Part shown: positions 3,362-41,949 of the stretch, in pieces
Numbering within the stretch: the first letter of the stretch is position 1
Layout of the letters: the number at the start of each line of letters is the position of its first letter
Made by a program: the position numbers and the translations under genes
The notes under the pieces: model-generated
Databases searched by the model: none
Told to the model about the DNA's origin: nothing
Seen by the model: only the letters and a program-made list of their open reading frames with translations
From: a virus
Taxonomy: Duplodnaviria; Heunggongvirae; Uroviricota; Caudoviricetes
Reading direction: 5' to 3' (one strand)
Virus record (IMG/VR): IMGVR_UViG_2516143027_000009
Length of the DNA: 43,233 nt

Positions 3362-3388
3362 CCCGCAAAATATTGCGGGCTTTTTTTT
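3362..3388 (+). terminator. Rho-independent terminator, plus-strand orientation, overlapping tailspike stop
   Basis: Hairpin CCCGCAAAATATTGCGGG followed by T8 on the plus strand; the minus-strand reading lacks a U-tract. Confidence 0.5.
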
Positions 3389-6300
3389 AACGTTCTTCCA
3401 GAGACTGAATCCGCTCTTTTATCTTATCCATTTCTCTGCGCTGCCATGCCGCCTCGATATAGAATAAGAGATCAGGTCTGACCCCCCATCTAGATCCTGC
3501 TGGCGTTATTTCAACGCGCTCAATGATGTCTTCCATTACCATCACTGGATTATCATCCTCATCAACAATGATGCTCCCTTCATTATCAGTCAGCGGCATT
3601 TCCCTTTGGCCAGTAATGACGTCATCATATACTGCGGGATAATCGTCATAGCAAAGAAAGGCATAGCGGCATGTTGTGCTTTCTTCTTCCATGAGTCCGT
3701 GAGAAATAAGAACATCACGAAGTTGCTGCGCGATTACACCATGATGTATCCTCGCCCCTTCTTCCCCCTTTATAGCGACAGCGTTCAGCCATTTATAAGC
3801 GATATACCTGACGTCACCCCAGGCATCCAGCAATGCTTCGTCAGGAGAGACCGGCTCTGTCTTTAATGTTCCGTCACTGGTAACCACAGGATTGGAGCCA
3901 AGATAAACTGTCGAGAACCTGTTTCCCGGACCACCAAGAGCATTTACATTATCAAGATAAGGTTTAACATCTCCGTTCTCAAAAAGATGTTCGAGTGCGT
4001 TATATACCGCGCGACGTGGAGTACTGCTTCCGGAACCATGCAACGTTATCATTGCACCATCTGCTGAAGACGTTGTTTCACCGCCGCTAACGATTAATCT
4101 CTGAGCGGTAACATCATCAGACGGTACTTTCTTCGCAATAATGGCGTAATTACCCTCAAGTTTGACTTCCGCGCGAACTTGTCCTGATGTACCTGCATGG
4201 ACAGTCAGTGACTGGACGGCAACATCATCTGTGAAATCAACGGGTACAGGAACCGTCCTCACGCCTGACGTCGACATAAAAGTAGGAAGCGTTCTGTTAG
4301 GAGTGGCTCCGTAGACAAAATCCCTTGAAACAAATTCTTCCTGTTTAATTTTCACCCTGAAACAATACAAATCAGCCGGGTGACCATCGTGAACATAAGG
4401 ATATTTTCTGTTGTTATCCCCTATGCTCCATGGGTTTAGAAAGTCTTCCCCACCGAAAATGTAGTACAGCCAGTTGTCTTTGATACAAACTGAACCAACA
4501 CCAACCGCAGAGTTAACTATTCCGCCCTGATAAATCTGATCAGTAACATTAACCCACTCTACATTATCCAGACTCCACTCATTGACGTTAACTCTGGTCA
4601 TAAATGTTCTTGGATAATTTCCTGCATAACGGTTATCAGGTTCTCCTCCTTCCCACTCACCAAATGCGCGCTCACTGCCAAAAATAATCAGCTCATCGCC
4701 AACTTTGGCAAAAGGAAGGTTTGAGTGATGAACATTATTTGGGAAGCGAAGAGAATTCCATGATGTACCTAAATCAGAGCTTCTGTGCAATGAACTACCG
4801 GGTTGAGTACTTAATGTCCCCCTGGTCGTCAGATACAGAATGCCATCATAATATTTTACACATGGCTCAGATGCATTCGCCTCATATTCTGCAGGTATGC
4901 GTCTGCGAACAAAGCTACCAGGAGAACCGAAAGCATCAGAGAAATAGAGTATCCCAAGCTCGCGTGGACCAATATCACCATTATGGTAGCCAACAGCAAA
5001 ACTGTTATCGCTAATCGTCGCAAAACTGTGAATCTCAGTAACAGGAGTGCTTCCGTCAACAAAAGAAGGAATAGTTCCAAGACTGGTTTTTCTCCATGGT
5101 GACGAGTGAAATGATGTACCAAAACTCCAGTATCTACCCTCGTTATTCTGATCCACATCCTGGGTATTTTGCGTCGTAACTGTAAAAGTATTTTTATCAA
5201 TAACAGTAGTCACCGTCATATTCCCGGTAACACCTGTAACACCAGAGTTTGAGAAGTTGACAAAATCACCAGCAAATAATCCGTGATCAGTAATGCGAAT
5301 ATAAGCGACTTGCTGATTTGCTGCTTTCGTTATACCACCATAAACGCGAAGGCTGCGACTCATTGGGCGATCCCACAACTCTGCAACCTGCAGTTTATTT
5401 CCGCTCACGGTCCGCGTCTCAATTACAGCAAAAAGGCGATTTCTGACAACCCCCATACTCATGCAGTGATAGTTAACTGTGGGATAGTTTTCATGTAAAT
5501 CTGTAAGCCATTCCGGCGTTGTCCAGGTCTTCCCGTCATCTCCTGAGCGAACCCATGCAACATGGAGGTTATTTACACCATGGCGGTCTCCAGCCATAAA
5601 AGGCGCATAGATGACATTGTCATATACAAACGTTTTATCCTGCGTCCAGGCGTTGTACCACGGTGTATCTGTAATTTTAAATAACTCTCCCTGGATAAAA
5701 TCTTCAGAAGCATAAAAAAGAGGCTGACCCGGTATTCTCTCAAATAAAAAACGAGCATTTTTAAATCGACTGACATCCGGAAGAGTTGATACTTTAAAAG
5801 TAAGCCCTAATCCGTCAATTTTATAACCTGGAGATGAGGCTTCAAGGCACGCGCTTATTGCAGTGGAATCGTCATTTATACCATCACCAACAGCTCCAAA
5901 ATCTTTGGGGCTAATAGCATCACGCATTTTATCCTGGAACGTTCGGTACACAGCCCCAGAACCATACTGAATAAACCAACCAAAACCACCAACAACCCCG
6001 GCGATTGCAGCATCGACATAATTACGCATTGAGCGATTATTTACAGCGTCCTGCTCAAATGATGGATCTGCAAGGTTAGAAATTTTGTTTTGCTTTGCAT
6101 CGTAATATTTTGCAAGCAAAGATGGTTTCATCAATGCACGTCTGAACCACCCAAAACATTGCTGGATCAGCATCGTCAGGTAGTCAAAGGCATCTTCATG
6201 CACTTCGGGGAAAAATTTTCCCTGATTGCGAAGGTCTGTCTCCTGCACTACATCAAGCACACGATCTATCGTAATTCGCCATCCAGTAGCAAGCGGAGAC

Positions 6301-6506
6301 GGAAGAACCACAGAACCGCCACTATAAGTGCCCGCCCCAGTTACCGTATAACCGGTATCCAGAACCAATTCTGTTACGTTTCCGTTCAGGTCAGACACCT
6401 GAACAACCAGGTCTGATTTTCTGAAAATTCGAAAAGTATACGGAAACGATGTCGTAACGCCGTTACCGGTGTATTCGTTGTGGTCAACTTCGGTTGAGAC
6501 CGTCAT
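3387..6506 (-). CDS. Tailspike or tail fiber protein with C-terminal intramolecular chaperone (peptidase S74-like) domain
   Basis: 1039 aa; N-terminal podovirus tail-fiber anchor-like segment (TGNGVTTSFPYTF); C-terminal ~150 aa resembles the self-cleaving chaperone domain of endosialidases and L-shaped fibers; position after the internal virion protein genes. Confidence 0.75.
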   Translation of the reverse strand: MTVSTEVDHNEYTGNGVTTSFPYTFRIFRKSDLVVQVSDLNGNVTELVLDTGYTVTGAGTYSGGSVVLPSPLATGWRITIDRVLDVVQETDLRNQGKFFPEVHEDAFDYLTMLIQQCFGWFRRALMKPSLLAKYYDAKQNKISNLADPSFEQDAVNNRSMRNYVDAAIAGVVGGFGWFIQYGSGAVYRTFQDKMRDAISPKDFGAVGDGINDDSTAISACLEASSPGYKIDGLGLTFKVSTLPDVSRFKNARFLFERIPGQPLFYASEDFIQGELFKITDTPWYNAWTQDKTFVYDNVIYAPFMAGDRHGVNNLHVAWVRSGDDGKTWTTPEWLTDLHENYPTVNYHCMSMGVVRNRLFAVIETRTVSGNKLQVAELWDRPMSRSLRVYGGITKAANQQVAYIRITDHGLFAGDFVNFSNSGVTGVTGNMTVTTVIDKNTFTVTTQNTQDVDQNNEGRYWSFGTSFHSSPWRKTSLGTIPSFVDGSTPVTEIHSFATISDNSFAVGYHNGDIGPRELGILYFSDAFGSPGSFVRRRIPAEYEANASEPCVKYYDGILYLTTRGTLSTQPGSSLHRSSDLGTSWNSLRFPNNVHHSNLPFAKVGDELIIFGSERAFGEWEGGEPDNRYAGNYPRTFMTRVNVNEWSLDNVEWVNVTDQIYQGGIVNSAVGVGSVCIKDNWLYYIFGGEDFLNPWSIGDNNRKYPYVHDGHPADLYCFRVKIKQEEFVSRDFVYGATPNRTLPTFMSTSGVRTVPVPVDFTDDVAVQSLTVHAGTSGQVRAEVKLEGNYAIIAKKVPSDDVTAQRLIVSGGETTSSADGAMITLHGSGSSTPRRAVYNALEHLFENGDVKPYLDNVNALGGPGNRFSTVYLGSNPVVTSDGTLKTEPVSPDEALLDAWGDVRYIAYKWLNAVAIKGEEGARIHHGVIAQQLRDVLISHGLMEEESTTCRYAFLCYDDYPAVYDDVITGQREMPLTDNEGSIIVDEDDNPVMVMEDIIERVEITPAGSRWGVRPDLLFYIEAAWQRREMDKIKERIQSLEER

Positions 6507-6682: not shown

Positions 6683-6701
6683 ATTGCATGGAGAAGATAA
6701 G

Positions 6702-6959
6702 ATGCAGCAGTATCACTATCCACTGGAAGACGGATTTACCGAAAGGATTCACACGCCGGGAGGCGTCAGGTCACTGGTGGAGGGATCGCACTTGATGAAA
6801 TTACTCCGGGATCTCGATAAGGATGGATTTAATGTCGATGGCCCACTTGCCGAACTGACTGCACTGATTAACTACGTCACCAGCTCACAGATGTCTATGC
6901 AGGATCTGCAAACACATCTCGACTATTGTGCCGAACAATTACGAAAACAAACCCGGTAA
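6702..6959 (+). CDS. Small antirepressor-like protein: standalone copy of the module shared by three antirepressor fusions
   Basis: RBS GGAGAAG then ATG 6702; 85 aa; roughly 40% identity by eye to the C-terminal ~80 aa of the 8108, 9930 and 41299 gene products (shared PL..G...IH.P.GV..L.E.S.LM.LL..L..DG..V.G..AELT....Y......QTH..Y). Confidence 0.6.
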   Translation: MQQYHYPLEDGFTERIHTPGGVRSLVEGSHLMKLLRDLDKDGFNVDGPLAELTALINYVTSSQMSMQDLQTHLDYCAEQLRKQTR

Positions 6960-6981: not shown

Positions 6982-7710
6982 CTATCGTTTCGCTTTGTGC
7001 TCGTCCCAGCACGTTTTGCACCATGCCATTAAGCCGTCCGCATTTTGATTATTAGGGTAAAAGCTGGTCCGTTTTCTGCGGACATTACAAATTGGGCACC
7101 ACTTCATATGGCGTGTATTCTTTGGGCCATCGAGACACCTTGCACACCACTTAGTCAATCCATCTGGATTTTTTGACGATTTCCGGAATTTGTCATATGG
7201 AAGGTTTATTCTGCATCGCAAACACTGCTTGCGGCCACTTGAAACTCTGTTAGCTGATTCTTCTTTTGGCGGCGATACAGAAGGTATTCTTGCTGGCTCT
7301 GATACTGCCTGAGGTGCTTTTTTAGATGACTGAGACGATATGTCATCACCAGGGAATCTTCCATGATATGCCGGACGCGTTGACACTCCAGGTGGAAGCT
7401 CAGCTGTAAACGGCTTTGGCTGAATCAGTTGCCTCTCTTTTGCTAACTCCTGCTGTTTATAATATGTCTGGATTACCGCACTATCATAAGCAGGAGGTAC
7501 GGAAATATCAGGCGCGTTACCTCCAGTTTTTTGAAAATGAGTAGATGTGTGTTCTATCACCTGTGTACGACTAATCGTTACCTCCCCATCTTCGGTCTTT
7601 ATCGTTTTGTTCTGATTAACGACCGTACGATCAGAGATCTTAGTCTTGTTCTGGTTGATAACGTAAATAATCACCGCAACCACACCAACAACTATCCAGA
7701 AAACTTCCAT
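6982..7710 (-). CDS. Membrane-anchored protein with Pro-rich linker and tandem CxxC zinc-ribbon repeats
   Basis: N-terminal TM helix; two repeats C-x2-C...DGL..WC-x2-C; operator copy in its promoter region. Confidence 0.5.
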   Translation of the reverse strand: MEVFWIVVGVVAVIIYVINQNKTKISDRTVVNQNKTIKTEDGEVTISRTQVIEHTSTHFQKTGGNAPDISVPPAYDSAVIQTYYKQQELAKERQLIQPKPFTAELPPGVSTRPAYHGRFPGDDISSQSSKKAPQAVSEPARIPSVSPPKEESANRVSSGRKQCLRCRINLPYDKFRKSSKNPDGLTKWCARCLDGPKNTRHMKWCPICNVRRKRTSFYPNNQNADGLMAWCKTCWDEHKAKR

Positions 7711-7730
7711 TGCTTTTCCTCACAATAACA

Positions 7731-7745
7731 TTACCTTAAAGGTAA
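7731..7745. promoter_or_regulatory. Operator-like palindrome TTACC-TTAAA-GGTAA (copy 2)
   Basis: Sequence match to the operator consensus; divergent region between the 6982..7710 and 8108 genes. Confidence 0.5.
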
Positions 7746-7823
7746 TATCTTGCTTTCAGGTGATCAAGCGTTAAACGCAATCAACCAAATACGGTTGATT
7801 TTAATATTTCTTCGCGTTTATCA

Positions 7824-7838
7824 TTACCTTTGCGGTAA
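7824..7838. promoter_or_regulatory. Operator-like palindrome TTACC-TTTGC-GGTAA (copy 3)
   Basis: Sequence match to the operator consensus; upstream of the long leader of the 8108 gene. Confidence 0.5.
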
Positions 7839-7929
7839 ATTTACATCGCACTCCTCTTGTGCCATAGTAATCGGGCACTGGCAAAATCCAGTGCCGGGAT
7901 TGGCGTCCCGGGTTACTAAGTGGCGCATA

Positions 7930-7951
7930 CCACGCCAGACGTGGTTTTTTT
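7930..7951 (+). terminator. Intrinsic terminator inside the 5' leader of the BRO-domain antirepressor gene
   Basis: Hairpin CCACG-CCAGA-CGTGG followed by T7; about 150 nt upstream of the 8108 start codon. Confidence 0.45.
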
Positions 7952-8107
7952 ATGCGTTAAGCACAGCTATATCCGAATTATGGTGGGCTGGGCAGGGGTC
8001 CGAAAGGACGCCGGTACCACTTAGGCCGGTACGCCAACCTTGTCCAGTTCACCACCAGTAATTGGCGTTGCGGTGGTGATTAAAATCACTAAGTGGAGAT
8101 AACCACC

Positions 8108-8818
8108 ATGGCTAATGCTCAAACTTCCATCTTCAAATTTGAATCTGTTAACCCTATCCGTTCCATCATTATCGATGGCCAACCATGGTTTGTAGCCCAA
8201 GACGTTTGTAGTGCGCTGCGTATCCAAAACGTCACCCAAGCACTTGAAAAACTGGATGATGATGAAAGGTCTATGTTCAACATAGGGCATGAACATCGTG
8301 CAATTTTTGACAGCCGAGTAAAAGAGATCAACATCATCTCCGAGTCAGGCCTCTACACACTGATCCTCCGCTGCCGCGACGCAGTGACACCAGGCACTAT
8401 CCCCTACCGCTTTCGTAAATGGGTTACAGGTGAGGTTCTTCCTCAGATCCGCCGCACCGGAAGTTACATTAAAAACTCGCTCCCGCAGGAAGAACGCATA
8501 AAGATGGTTGCCGACCAGGTAGCCAACGCCACGGCGTCAGCAGTAATGCAGGCGATGAAGATAGAGAACAAAACCTACAGTGCCCCACTGAAGCCCGGCT
8601 ACCGTAGCCTGATTCATTCGCCGTCTGGTGTTCTCGGCCTGACGGAGAACTCACTGCTGATGAATCTGCTGAACCAGTTACAGGAAGACGGGCACGACGT
8701 ATCGGGCGCGGCGGCGGAACTGACCACCATGTTCTGCTACATCGTCGGTGTGAGCAAATGCCTGCGTGATATCCAGACCCACGCGGAGTACATCAACGAC
8801 AAGGCAGGGTTCTTCTGA
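8108..8818 (+). CDS. Antirepressor-like protein, N-terminal BRO-N domain fused to the shared C-terminal module
   Basis: N-terminal region typical of the BRO-N family (IFKFE...IDGQPWFVAQDVCSAL); RBS AAGTGGAG before ATG 8108; C-terminal 80 aa near-identical to the 9930 and 41299 products. Confidence 0.7.
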   Translation: MANAQTSIFKFESVNPIRSIIIDGQPWFVAQDVCSALRIQNVTQALEKLDDDERSMFNIGHEHRAIFDSRVKEINIISESGLYTLILRCRDAVTPGTIPYRFRKWVTGEVLPQIRRTGSYIKNSLPQEERIKMVADQVANATASAVMQAMKIENKTYSAPLKPGYRSLIHSPSGVLGLTENSLLMNLLNQLQEDGHDVSGAAAELTTMFCYIVGVSKCLRDIQTHAEYINDKAGFF

Positions 8819-9905: not shown

Positions 9906-10160
9906 GCACGTCCCTGTGCCGCCGTTCTGTCAGAAGAACCCTGCCTTGTCGTTGATGTATTCCGCGTGCGTCTGGATATCACGCAGGCATTTGCTCACAC
10001 CAACGATGTAGCAGAACATGGTGGTCAGCTCCGCCGCCGCGCCCGATACATCGTGCCCGTCTTCCTGTAACTGGTTCAGCAGATTCATCAGCAGTGAGTT
10101 CTCCGTCAGGCCGAGAACACCCGACGGCGAATGAATCAGACTGCGGTAGCCTGGCTTCAA
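9906..10160 (-). repeat. Copy B (inverted) of the ~260-bp repeat
   Basis: Reverse complement matches copies A and C, including the post-stop segment. Confidence 0.8.
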
Positions 10161-10868
10161 TGGATAACCATAACATTTTGTCTGTGTTTTAATTGCCTCA
10201 CGAAGCGCATCTAACATCTTGACTGCCACTTCATCATTCTCTGATGCAGATCCAGCAGGGAGATACTCCCCTTCAAGCGGAACCCGAGCAACAAGAGACA
10301 ACGCTTCGGCAAATTGATCTTCACCAATTTCTTTGTACGAACAGCCAAAATGAGATTTCAGTGACGACCACATGGTGATCATCGCCTTAGCCTGTTTTTC
10401 TTTTGGCAGAGACTGACCGCGACTCATGACGAGTTGTTTAATGGCTTCCTGCTGTTCAGTTGTTATTTTACCCGGCAACGCCTTTTTAGCTTTGCGTGGG
10501 TTAACCACATGGCCTTTAGTCCAGTACTCGTAGAGCACATCGTCACACTCTTCCTGATACTGGATTACCTTGTCGCGGATTTCAGGGCGGACTTTGTTAG
10601 GGCTGATGCTGTTCAACCAAGCTGCCAATTTTCGTAAAGCCATACAAATCATGGCTTGCACCCCACCGGCAGAAGGTATGGTGATTTCCACCATACCCTT
10701 CGAGAAGCGTTGAGAAATCTTCTTATGTTGAGATTTCCAGTCTAGCCCCATTCCCTCAACGATAGGTTTCATTGGGGTATACGGTTCGCCGTTGTGATTG
10801 ACAACATAAAGCTCTGCGCCGTGGAATGGCACGTTGATAGTAGATACTGCTGTTGCTATACTCGTCAT
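9930..10868 (-). CDS. ant: Antirepressor Ant-like protein (P22 Ant N-terminal-like domain plus shared C-terminal module)
   Basis: N-terminal FHGAELYVVNHNGEPYTPMKPIVEGMGLDWKSQ resembles the P22 antirepressor N-domain (from memory); located downstream of an Arc-like gene with a divergent Mnt-like gene, as in P22 immI. Confidence 0.65.
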   Translation of the reverse strand: MTSIATAVSTINVPFHGAELYVVNHNGEPYTPMKPIVEGMGLDWKSQHKKISQRFSKGMVEITIPSAGGVQAMICMALRKLAAWLNSISPNKVRPEIRDKVIQYQEECDDVLYEYWTKGHVVNPRKAKKALPGKITTEQQEAIKQLVMSRGQSLPKEKQAKAMITMWSSLKSHFGCSYKEIGEDQFAEALSLVARVPLEGEYLPAGSASENDEVAVKMLDALREAIKTQTKCYGYPLKPGYRSLIHSPSGVLGLTENSLLMNLLNQLQEDGHDVSGAAAELTTMFCYIVGVSKCLRDIQTHAEYINDKAGFF

Positions 10869-10942
10869 GTCGTTAATTCCTATACGTAGTTTTACGATAC
10901 TGAAGCCCTGACGGTCTGGCCACCGTGGGGCTTCGCTGTTTT
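10869..10942 (+). ncRNA. Candidate sar-like antisense RNA (antisense to the ant RBS and arc 3' end)
   Basis: Plus-strand promoter TTGATA-17 bp-TATACT at 10834..10862 inside the ant 5' end; hairpin 10902..10934 followed by a T-rich tract gives a predicted transcript of about 70 nt. Confidence 0.4.
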
Positions 10943-35445: not shown

Positions 35446-36030
35446 ATGAAAAGTATCCAGGACGTCCGCAGGCAAAATCTCAACGACTTGATCGACCGTG
35501 AATTCAATGGTGTTCAGACGCGGATGGCAGAAAAACTTGGAACTCAGGCAAATCTGGTAAACCGCTGGGCTCTTGGCAAGAAGGTTATCGGCGACCAGGT
35601 TGCGCGAAAAATTGAAGCTGCCGCCAATAAACCCCGTAACTGGCTTGATATCGATCGCTCGCTTTCTCAGGAAGGTTTTCAGCCTGTCGGCCCAAGCGAC
35701 ATTGGTCAGCTGGCGGCTCACAACCTGGAACGCTGGATGAGCGAAAGCCGCGACCTTTCAACACAGGGAAAACTTCACCGCGCATCCGGCGTCGCCCAGG
35801 TGACAATCAGCCGCCTGTTAAACAATGAGGTCAGCGTTTCCATTTCCACCCTGGAGAATGTTGCATCCGCATTCGGGCGTCACGGATATGAACTACTGAT
35901 TCACCCGCACGACCCTGCGACTATCAACTATGACCGCTCACGCTACGCATTGTTACCCGAAACCGAGAAAGCAAAGATCGAAAGTTACATTGAATTTGTC
36001 ATCAACCAGAACGAAAAAAGCAAACAATAA
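35446..36030 (+). CDS. Immunity repressor (CI-like), dual HTH, no S24 peptidase domain
   Basis: N-terminal HTH (TQANLVNRWALGKKVIGDQVARKIEAAANKPRNWL) and a second HTH-like segment (ASGVAQVTISRLLNNEVSVSISTLENVASAFG); no Ser/Lys autocleavage motifs; flanked by operator clusters. Confidence 0.65.
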   Translation: MKSIQDVRRQNLNDLIDREFNGVQTRMAEKLGTQANLVNRWALGKKVIGDQVARKIEAAANKPRNWLDIDRSLSQEGFQPVGPSDIGQLAAHNLERWMSESRDLSTQGKLHRASGVAQVTISRLLNNEVSVSISTLENVASAFGRHGYELLIHPHDPATINYDRSRYALLPETEKAKIESYIEFVINQNEKSKQ

Positions 36031-40974: not shown

Positions 40975-41097
40975 AATCACGCCTGACGAATCGCGATTAT
41001 CTCGCTATTGGTATTGCAGAGATTGCTGGACTCAATGGCGCATGATTTGACAATGCCGCCAGAGCTATCGCATACTGACCGCACTAGAAAACAAACA

Positions 41098-41135
41098 GCG
41101 GTCATCCGCACCCGATAGCTTTGCGGCTTTTTTAT
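41098..41135 (+). terminator. Rho-independent terminator ending the early-left operon
   Basis: Hairpin around CCGCA...TGCGG followed by CTTTTTT. Confidence 0.5.
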
Positions 41136-41298
41136 GCCTGCAATCTGGCATAGTCACATCCGTACAAAGGTCGGGTGGAGAGGCGTAATACAACACCCGA
41201 AAGGGGAATATGCCCGGAGCTACTGTTTGTGCTCTAGTTGACACCCGATCACCAGCTACTAACTGGTTTTCGTAACTAAAAACAAACAGGAGGTCATC

Positions 41299-41949
41299 AT
41301 GACCAGTCAACTCATCCCCGTATTCAACGGCACTATATCCAACGAAACCGCTCTTCTCGTTAATGCCCGTGATTTACACACTTTCCTCGATGTGGGTAAG
41401 CGATTTGCTTCGTGGATTGTCGAACGAATTGCTGAATATGGTTTCGTTGAAAATCAAGACTTTATGATTATTTCCCAAGTTCGGGAAAAAATAGGCAGAG
41501 GCCGTCCTGCAAAAGACTACCACCTCACCCTCGATACAGCCAAAGAGCTGGCGATGGTCGAGCGTAATGAAAAAGGTCGTCAGGTACGACGCTACTTCAT
41601 TGAATGCGAGAAACGTTTAAGACAACAAGAAACAAAAGTGGAGAAGGTCTTGTCAGGCTTCATGCCCGCCATTATGGAGGCGATCAAGCTGGAAGACAAA
41701 AAAGAATACAGTGCCCCACTGAAGCCCGGCTACCGCAGCCTGATTCACTCGCCGTCTGGTGTTCTCGGCCTGACGGAGCACTCACTGCTGATGAATCTGC
41801 TGAACCAGTTACAGGACGACGGGCACGACGTATCGGGCGCGGCGGCGGAGCTGACCACCATGTTCTGCTACATCGTCGGTGTGAGCAAATGCCTGCGTGA
41901 TATCCAGACTCACGCGGAGTACATCAACGACAAGGCAGGGTTCTTCTGA
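41299..41949 (+). CDS. Antirepressor-like protein, AntA-type N-terminal domain fused to the shared C-terminal module
   Basis: RBS CAGGAGG; N-terminal segment NARDLHTFLDVGKRFASWIVERIAEYGFVENQDF resembles AntA/AntB-type domains (from memory); C-terminal 80 aa near-identical to the 8108 and 9930 products. Confidence 0.65.
   Translation: MTSQLIPVFNGTISNETALLVNARDLHTFLDVGKRFASWIVERIAEYGFVENQDFMIISQVREKIGRGRPAKDYHLTLDTAKELAMVERNEKGRQVRRYFIECEKRLRQQETKVEKVLSGFMPAIMEAIKLEDKKEYSAPLKPGYRSLIHSPSGVLGLTEHSLLMNLLNQLQDDGHDVSGAAAELTTMFCYIVGVSKCLRDIQTHAEYINDKAGFF

Follow-up and report, generated by a model that had tools for sequence, protein, structure and literature searches.

The question raised by positions 7750-8107 of the window (the whole stretch of DNA analysed here, 43,233 nt) is how this structured segment controls the antirepressor gene that follows it. 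The window is a Uetakevirus-like (epsilon15/phiV10-type) prophage, and in the related Uetakevirus vB_EcoP_ZX5 the overexpression of a Bro-N anti-repressor favours lytic growth (PMC9782041). The gene in question is the following:

8108..8818, + strand: antirepressor gene ant, with an N-terminal Bro-N domain (Pfam PF02498, E = 9.6e-20) and the same start codon in RefSeq

An earlier note on this DNA had described, between the operators and this start codon, a leader of about 350 nt containing a perfect inverted repeat, a GAAA-looped hairpin, an internal terminator and a stem next to the ribosome-binding site (RBS), and had suggested control by attenuation or antitermination, or else a separate small RNA. 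Reading of the sequence from 7300 to 8500 finds all four elements in place, each folding better than shuffled counterparts (z -2.4 to -4.8). The region is, however, a known type of phage immunity device, that of P1 c4 and Gifsy-1 IsrK, and not an attenuator: one transcript is predicted to bear a short decoy RNA ending at a terminator, a small antisense RNA and the RBS of the antirepressor gene, which the antisense RNA would mask. The reading that this Bro-N antirepressor is under the control of a portable immunity cassette based on antisense RNA, of the P1 immI (c4)/Gifsy-1 IsrK type, is given a probability of roughly 0.78, and the locus is an unannotated, otherwise ordinary example of a known mechanism.

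The antirepressor is a trigger of prophage induction, and its control is absent from current annotation. Specifically, the RNAs of the module are annotated neither in the one inspected RefSeq E. coli genome bearing the exact sequence nor in the related phage records examined, among which the phiV10 record marks just a "terminator"; the control of the antirepressor is therefore invisible in these annotations.

Two RNA families in tandem upstream of ant

An Rfam scan of the whole window, a check that the earlier note had proposed, places two families above their gathering thresholds, in the order isrK, C4 and then the RBS along the strand. Specifically, isrK (RF01394) matches 7875-7951, a span that includes the terminator, with 67.7 bits (gathering 50; E = 1.7e-12), and the C4 antisense RNA (RF01695) matches 7976-8059 over the full length of its model with 66 bits (gathering 45; E = 9.2e-11). 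The suggestion of a separate small RNA is thereby borne out, with two RNAs, one IsrK-like and one C4-type, in place of one. Moreover, a permissive scan returns the c4-a1b1 motif (RF03163) at 7862-7914, overlapping isrK, with 44.1 bits, slightly below its gathering threshold of 46.7, and the isrK and c4-a1b1 models cover the same DNA in the window, in 12 other loci and in P1. The isrK-C4 tandem recurs in all 12 fetched phage loci and also in P1, where isrK scores below gathering. Matches to the leader are widespread: they occur in 253 phage records, including phiV10, TL-2011b, phages of Klebsiella, Enterobacter, Hafnia, Yersinia and Salmonella and many Stx-converting phages, and, among 5426 complete E. 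coli genomes, in the prophages of 472. E. coli CUVET20-PYO2 and AREA_486 are examples with the identical sequence.

Promoter, operators and the extent of the leader

The elements that precede the transcribed leader are listed below.

7730..7746, unstranded: operator-like palindrome ATTACCTTAAAGGTAAT, in the gap that separates the module from the divergent 242-aa gene (start 7710)
7779-7786 / 7793-7800, + strand: hairpin AATCAACC/GGTTGATT, 8 bp with a loop of 6, followed by a T-rich tract (terminator scan)
7823..7839, unstranded: second operator ATTACCTTTGCGGTAAA, directly abutting the -35 box
7840..7868, + strand: promoter-like site, with -35 TTTACA (7840-45), a spacing of 17 nt and a TG-extended -10 CATAGT (7863-68) (consensus scan)

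The isrK model begins 6 nt past the -10 box, and the sequence places the likely transcription start at G7875, an assignment supported by the Gifsy-1 mutant positions G28 and G31, which fall within the a1 segment (see below) when 7875 is taken as +1. With the start taken from the promoter-like site, the transcribed leader measures about 233 nt (7875-8107). It is shorter than the 350 nt previously ascribed to it, and the promoter-like site and the second operator lie inside that interval.

The half-sites of the second operator are conserved and its 5-bp spacer is variable in phiV10, Tyrion, EC.W1-9 and Klebsiella phages. The 17-bp motif ATTACC-N5-GGTAAW occurs at 11 sites in the window (6610, 7730, 7823, 8889, 27045, 30190, 30208, 33026, 35375, 36087 and 36149) against 0.18 expected by chance, and these sites, together with the position of the operators at the module, point to a phage-wide repressor that probably controls the module promoter. 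Three of the 11 palindromes flank a 194-aa double-HTH protein (35446-36030), which is likely the repressor. The scattered operators of the prophage resemble the dispersed C1 operators of P1.

The perfect inverted repeat, AATCAACC/GGTTGATT, is real (-9.1 kcal/mol, z -4.8), but it precedes the promoter and hence is not part of the leader RNA. In phiV10 and Tyrion it aligns with a CAAACC-N6-GGTTTG hairpin that overlaps the stop codon of a small upstream gene, and the stem changes relative to that counterpart are compensatory; in the window, the reverse-oriented 242-aa gene is inserted between the small upstream gene and the hairpin, which is best read as a terminator-like boundary element.

The IsrK-like RNA and its terminator

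The first RNA of the module comprises the following segments.

7875..7951, + strand: IsrK-like short RNA, consisting of the a1/b1 element and the terminator (RF01394)
7900..7906, + strand: a1, UUGGCGU, complementary to a' and located in the loop of the second isrK hairpin
7916..7923, + strand: b1, CUAAGUGG, complementary to b'
stem 7929-7945, T run to 7951, + strand: intrinsic terminator ACCACG-CCAGA-CGTGGT (consensus scan; part of the isrK model)

The spacing between the promoter-like site (7840-68) and the terminator (7929-51) suits an IsrK primary transcript, both ends of which are predicted. In its fold, a first hairpin with the conserved loop GCAAAAUC is followed by a second hairpin that shows a1 in its loop, by b1 and by the terminator. 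Within the isrK segment (7875-7951), neither the minimum-energy nor the centroid fold contains a competing antiterminator, and the terminator is retained in the fold of the full transcript as well. The GCAAAAUC loop (7881-7888) is near-invariant among relatives, whereas a1 and b1 vary; a search across the module for a complementary partner of this loop found none.

The C4 RNA and its two composite targets

Past the terminator, the read-through segment holds the antisense RNA, the second pair of target segments and the RBS.

7976..8059, + strand: C4-type antisense RNA (RF01695)
7998-8009: GAAA hairpin GUCC-GAAA-GGAC, the first inner hairpin of the C4 fold
8017..8024, + strand: b', CCACUUAG, in the loop of the second inner C4 hairpin
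8031..8037, + strand: a', ACGCCAA, in the single-stranded joint of C4
8049..8079, + strand: a2 hairpin, with arms TCACCACC (8049-56) and GGTGGTGA (8072-79) and a2 in the loop
8062-68, + strand: a2, UUGGCGU, the target of a'
8089..8096, + strand: b2, CUAAGUGG, overlapping the Shine-Dalgarno GGAG (8095-98)

By analogy with the annotated 77-nt P1 RNA, the mature C4 is predicted to span 7982-8056. The minimum-energy fold of this segment is the fold of the family (-43.1 kcal/mol, z -4.6), in which a long closing stem surrounds two hairpins and a single-stranded joint, and the GAAA hairpin, also genuine, takes its place within it. In this fold the tRNA-like stem bears an unpaired ACC(A) 3' tail. In P1, the c4 RNA is matured by RNase P from a longer precursor into a stable RNA of about 77 nt; by the same analogy, RNase P probably cuts out C4 here, and the C4 3' end is likewise placed by homology. 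In two viral contigs (L149 and L183), the C4 3' arm runs straight into a T run (CCGCCCTTTTTTTT), and C4 in relatives of this type may end at its own intrinsic terminator rather than by trimming; the segment past a2 still complements the C4 3' arm in them.

C4 is exactly complementary to both composite sites, over 8 nt through b' and 7 nt through a'. The composite a+b target occurs at just two places in the 43-kb window, namely a1/b1 and a2/b2, and a search of the prophage for further C4 targets through this composite site found none beyond those two. The Shine-Dalgarno GGAG sits 9 nt upstream of the ATG at 8108 and, since b2 overlaps it, C4 is predicted to block the translation of ant. The mean predicted duplex energies are -30.5 kcal/mol for the decoy site and -29.3 kcal/mol for the RBS site, with the first site the stronger in 43 of 66 loci; the idea that the decoy is the stronger binder of C4 was rejected, as this difference is not consistent.

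Covariation of C4 with both targets

Two scans of viral contigs yielded at least 86 unique loci holding C4 and an exact a2, which comprise at least 14 a' variants, at least 39 b' variants and at least 47 a'/b' combinations. Every C4 was set against the region upstream of it and against the corresponding regions of the other specificity classes; b' was counted as matched where such a region holds its exact complement over 7 nt or more. For b', 33 of the 39 classes show the match in their own upstream region, whereas it occurs in 15 of the 1450 non-cognate pairs; for a', the figures are 35 of 39 and 0 of 1074. The a1/b1 site, itself conserved, shows covariation of the same strength as a2/b2. In the 12 fetched loci, b' is different in each, and both b1 and b2 track their own b'; examples of b' variants with their matching sites are CCUUUUAG/CUAAAAGG, CAUGAUGA/UCAUCAUG and CCGAUAAC/GUUAUCGG, and the a' variants behave alike. 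This contrast between cognate and non-cognate matches provides strong evidence, at the level of sequence, that C4 pairs with both sites.

The stem beside the RBS, the remaining element of the earlier description, is upheld by covariation in 51 relatives. Its 5' arm, TCACCACC, doubles as the 3' arm of the C4 closing stem; alternative structures therefore exist, the a2 hairpin and the closing stem being mutually exclusive. The TCACCACC/GGTGGTGA stem (-16.8 kcal/mol, z -4.0) presents a2 in a hairpin loop, as is the case for a1. RNAalifold run on a MAFFT alignment did not find a structure in the a2 region, because its length varies, and the stem was therefore scored by explicit pair counting. In the 51-sequence alignment, 89% of the cells pair, compared with 31-68% in slid controls, and five of the eight pairs show double changes, in 20 cells, a result reached by 0 of 500 shuffles. 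Variants of the C4 3' arm are matched past a2, as in CCAUCACC/GGUGAUGG, UCGCCACC/GGUGGCGA, CCUGCCACC/GGUGGCAG and CCGCCC/GGGCGG. A four-arm switch, in which GGTGGT would pair with ACCACC just before the start codon, was predicted in the window and rejected, because loci with an altered third arm do not track the fourth.

Relation to P1, Gifsy-1 and other systems

Both the P1 c4 system (PMC8546580) and the c4-a1b1 motif (PMC2864571) have already been described. The GenBank annotation of P1 gives the order C1 operator and promoters, a1, b1, c4 RNA (77 nt), a2, b2, icd RBS/start and ant, with a2 located 4 nt past c4 and b2 ending 11 nt before the icd start. The immI region of P1/P7 thus shares with the window a repressor-controlled promoter, a1, b1, C4, a2 a few nucleotides further on and b2 at the first downstream RBS, all spaced alike, and in the P1 C4, which has the same fold, a' likewise occupies the single-stranded joint and b' the second hairpin loop. 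P1 likewise pairs the C4 3' arm with the segment past a2 (CCUGCCACC with GGUAGCAGG), and the isrK model matches P1 (35 bits) because a terminator-like hairpin lies between b1 and c4 in this phage. Conversely, the parts themselves differ: the operator is the 17-bp palindrome ATTACC-N5-GGTAAT here and the asymmetric C1 operator in P1, the antirepressor is a Bro-N protein here and Ant1/2 in P1, a' reads ACGCCAA here and CUGUCAA in P1, and b' reads CCACUUAG here and CACUAAC in P1. In P1, the expression of ant depends on the translation of icd. The window, unlike P1, lacks icd (it has no icd-like ORF), and ant therefore directly follows C4, with a gap of 51 nt.

The isrK-orf45(STnc1160)-anrP-isrJ locus of the Salmonella prophage Gifsy-1 shares with the window IsrK, an intrinsic terminator and a read-through transcript that includes, besides the antirepressor gene, an RNA of about 80 nt. 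In that prophage, the isrK promoter drives the downstream antirepressor gene through the fraction of transcripts that read through, the long RNA is translationally silent, IsrK provided in trans increases antirepressor translation 139-fold, and the stable RNA STnc1160, of about 80 nt, is processed from the read-through RNA (PMC4825925). Lysogens of Gifsy-1 express both IsrK and STnc1160 at high levels (PMC7067206). The authors of the Gifsy-1 study attribute activation to a structural switch in the long mRNA and not to titration of processed C4, and constitutive STnc1160 failed to relieve IsrK toxicity (PMC4825925). In our reading, the proven Gifsy-1 pairs G28-C162 and G31-C159 correspond to a1-a' here; moreover, the minimum-energy fold of the full transcript of the window pairs a1/b1 with a'/b' in cis, which is the inactive "structure A" of Gifsy-1, defined there with the compensatory mutants G28A/C162U and G31A/C159U (PMC4825925). 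The two loci differ in that Gifsy-1 has an orf45 coupled to anrP, whereas the orf45 frame of the window has 14 codons; the Rfam scan of the window reported no isrJ. The Gifsy-1 paper (PMC4825925) does not cite P1 c4, and the equation of IsrK with the a1/b1 element of a c4-type module joins the P1 immI and Gifsy-1 IsrK literatures, which have been described separately. This equivalence also predicts which phages would be hetero-immune at the level of the antirepressor.

The same two Rfam RNAs stand beside a BRO-family gene with the N-terminal domain in the APSE phages of Hamiltonella, a different phage lineage with a different host, where c4 and isrK are both present and a'/b' are reported to match the non-coding region upstream of that gene (PMC7313666); the same paper treats isrK as a separate virulence-related sRNA, unlinked to a1/b1. 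In the satellite phage P4, the CI RNA is processed from an untranslated leader and pairs with seqA and seqC, which flank it (cited in PMC4825925). P4 CI causes premature transcription termination of the replication genes, whereas the downstream site of the window overlaps an RBS.

Proposed mechanism

For the mechanism proposed here, complementarity and covariation are seen in the sequence, and we infer processing, repression and titration. Transcription would start at about 7875, under a promoter with an operator of the putative phage repressor right next to its -35 box, and most transcripts would stop at 7929-7951 to yield an IsrK-like RNA of about 77 nt showing a1 and b1. Read-through of the terminator would be needed for both C4 and the ant mRNA, and the read-through RNA would bear the tRNA-like C4 (7982-8056), probably released by RNase P. 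The a' and b' segments of C4 would then pair with a2 and b2 and mask the RBS of ant, keeping the antirepressor silent in the lysogen. Conversely, a1/b1 would contend with a2/b2 for a' and b', both on the read-through RNA itself (in cis) and as the abundant short RNA (in trans), as the Gifsy-1 experiments suggest, so that strong transcription from the promoter, as in a burst following repressor loss or infection, would titrate C4 and switch on the translation of ant. Since the two-site a'/b' code varies between phages, it would also set the specificity of immunity.

Relative to the literature consulted, three points appear to be new, namely that IsrK corresponds to a1/b1, how large the specificity repertoire is and that the three arms covary; they represent refinements rather than a new class. 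The same seems to hold for an a2 hairpin whose 5' arm is taken from the closing stem of C4 and for the apparent independent reassortment of a' and b'. A broader reading, which we put forward tentatively and consider possible rather than probable as a whole, combines a three-RNA competitive circuit, the coupling of the a2 hairpin to C4, an a'/b' barcode and the recognition of sRNA-Xcc1 (see below) as a second, C4-like and previously unrecognised repressor, that of an AntA-type antirepressor. As part of this joint reading, the members of the circuit would all derive from one transcription unit, namely IsrK as the terminated decoy with a1/b1, C4 as the antisense RNA released by processing and a2/b2 as the target at the RBS. 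As all three arms covary, a structural coupling would link the folding or excision of C4 to the exposure of the site that C4 targets. If this is true, the independent reassortment of a' and b' would provide temperate enterobacterial phages with a combinatorial barcode of antirepressor immunity, far more diverse than the P1/P7 pair.

Alternative readings

Attenuation or antitermination, the control suggested by the earlier note, is not the best description of the locus. A leader acting in cis, which would set ant mainly by regulated read-through of 7929-7951 through alternative structures or a protein factor, accords with the real terminator between promoter and ant, with the alternative pairings of the leader and with Gifsy-1, in which transcripts read through in part and IsrK in trans increases a transcriptional fusion 8-fold. 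It is nevertheless unlikely, because the isrK segment retains the terminator in its minimum-energy fold, with no competing antiterminator predicted; moreover, variation and covariation reside in the C4 segments and their targets and not in the terminator arms, the three-way covariation supports antisense pairing of C4 with the RBS, and the translational effect in Gifsy-1 (139-fold) greatly exceeds the transcriptional one (8-fold). The terminator could also matter in another manner, in which C4 bound to nascent a1/b1 would strengthen the stop at 7929-7951, limiting C4 and ant in an autoregulatory way with RBS masking as a secondary effect. The end of b1 5 nt short of the terminator stem, the conservation of a1/b1 with a covariation as strong as that of a2/b2 and the analogy drawn by the Gifsy-1 authors with P4 CI RNA and its seqA/seqC sites (PMC4825925) all agree with such P4-like termination; in contrast, b2 overlaps the Shine-Dalgarno here and in most loci, which a termination-only role does not need, and the P1 annotation assigns translation repression to a2/b2. 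As the main reading, it is improbable, although it is compatible with RBS masking and neither precludes the other.

The published Gifsy-1 model would place at the locus a small ORF starting in the conserved AUGGUGGG (ATG 7980), to the translation of which ant would be coupled, with IsrK opening the RBS of the ORF. The AUG is the same and lies at a like distance from the start (nt 106 here, nt 107 in Gifsy-1), but the frame stops after 14 codons, at a TAG (8022-24) within the b' loop, 84 nt before the start of ant; since it ends so early and ant has its own Shine-Dalgarno, the published coupling steps do not carry over. Moreover, the ATGG...CACC stretch ranges from 75 to 86 nt in the a2-bearing loci, so the frame is not kept, and the transfer of this model to the window is very unlikely. 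The reading that dispenses with RNA function altogether, ascribing the region to chance hairpins or to a coding stretch, can point to a 103-aa ORF with a TTG start that spans 7750-8061 in the ORF list. It is contradicted by Rfam E-values of 1e-11 to 1e-12, by length changes in relatives that break the 103-aa frame and by RefSeq, which has no gene there, and it is already refuted by the covariation of stems and intermolecular sites.

Other antirepressor loci and neighbouring genes

The prophage contains three antirepressor genes, at 8108-8818 (+), 9930-10868 (-) and 41299-41949 (+), whose products differ in their N-termini (Bro-N, P22_AR_N and AntA) and are almost identical in the C-terminal 80 or so residues. 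Each of the genes adjoins a different Rfam antisense RNA, respectively isrK with C4, sar (10870-10937) and sRNA-Xcc1 (41169-41258). The sar copy beside the second ant recalls P22 sar/ant, in which an antisense RNA likewise controls an antirepressor; P22 sar is, however, a cis-antisense RNA from the opposite strand, whereas C4 is encoded on the same strand as its target and pairs via short segments.

The sRNA-Xcc1 locus (41040-41300, + strand) is laid out as in the C4 module. A promoter-like TTGACA box near 41048 precedes a short RNA whose hairpin loop holds ACTAGAAAACAAACAG (41083-98), and a terminator-like hairpin and a T run come next (about 41108-33), ahead of the Xcc1-like RNA. Within the Xcc1-like RNA, CTGTTTGT (41223-30) and TCTAGT (41233-38) are complementary to the upstream ACTAGAAAACAAACAG site, and CTGTTTGT is also complementary to ACAAACAG (41282-89), located at the Shine-Dalgarno and the ATG (41299) of the AntA-type gene. 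This layout and these complementarities suggest that sRNA-Xcc1 here represses an antirepressor in the manner of C4.

Upstream of the module, a 91-aa ORF (6684-6959, + strand) encodes a free-standing, divergent copy of the C-terminal domain common to the three Ant proteins, and its product could be an Ant competitor. The DNA at its 3' end is near-identical to phiV10p24 (annotated as similar to epsilon15p19), and the isrK/C4 module of phiV10 and Tyrion is directly preceded by a small gene. The 242-aa gene (6982-7710, - strand), reversed between this ORF and the module, gives a weak Stc1 zinc-finger-like match; homologous DNA occupies the same place in TL-2011b, where it is annotated "similar to hypothetical protein", and the gene is absent in phiV10. 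Lastly, RefSeq annotates an endosialidase catalytic beta-propeller domain in the tailspike gene (3387-6506, - strand), and the tailspike suggests a K1-capsule-specific, Uetakevirus-like prophage; its N-terminus is presumably epsilon15/phiV10-like.
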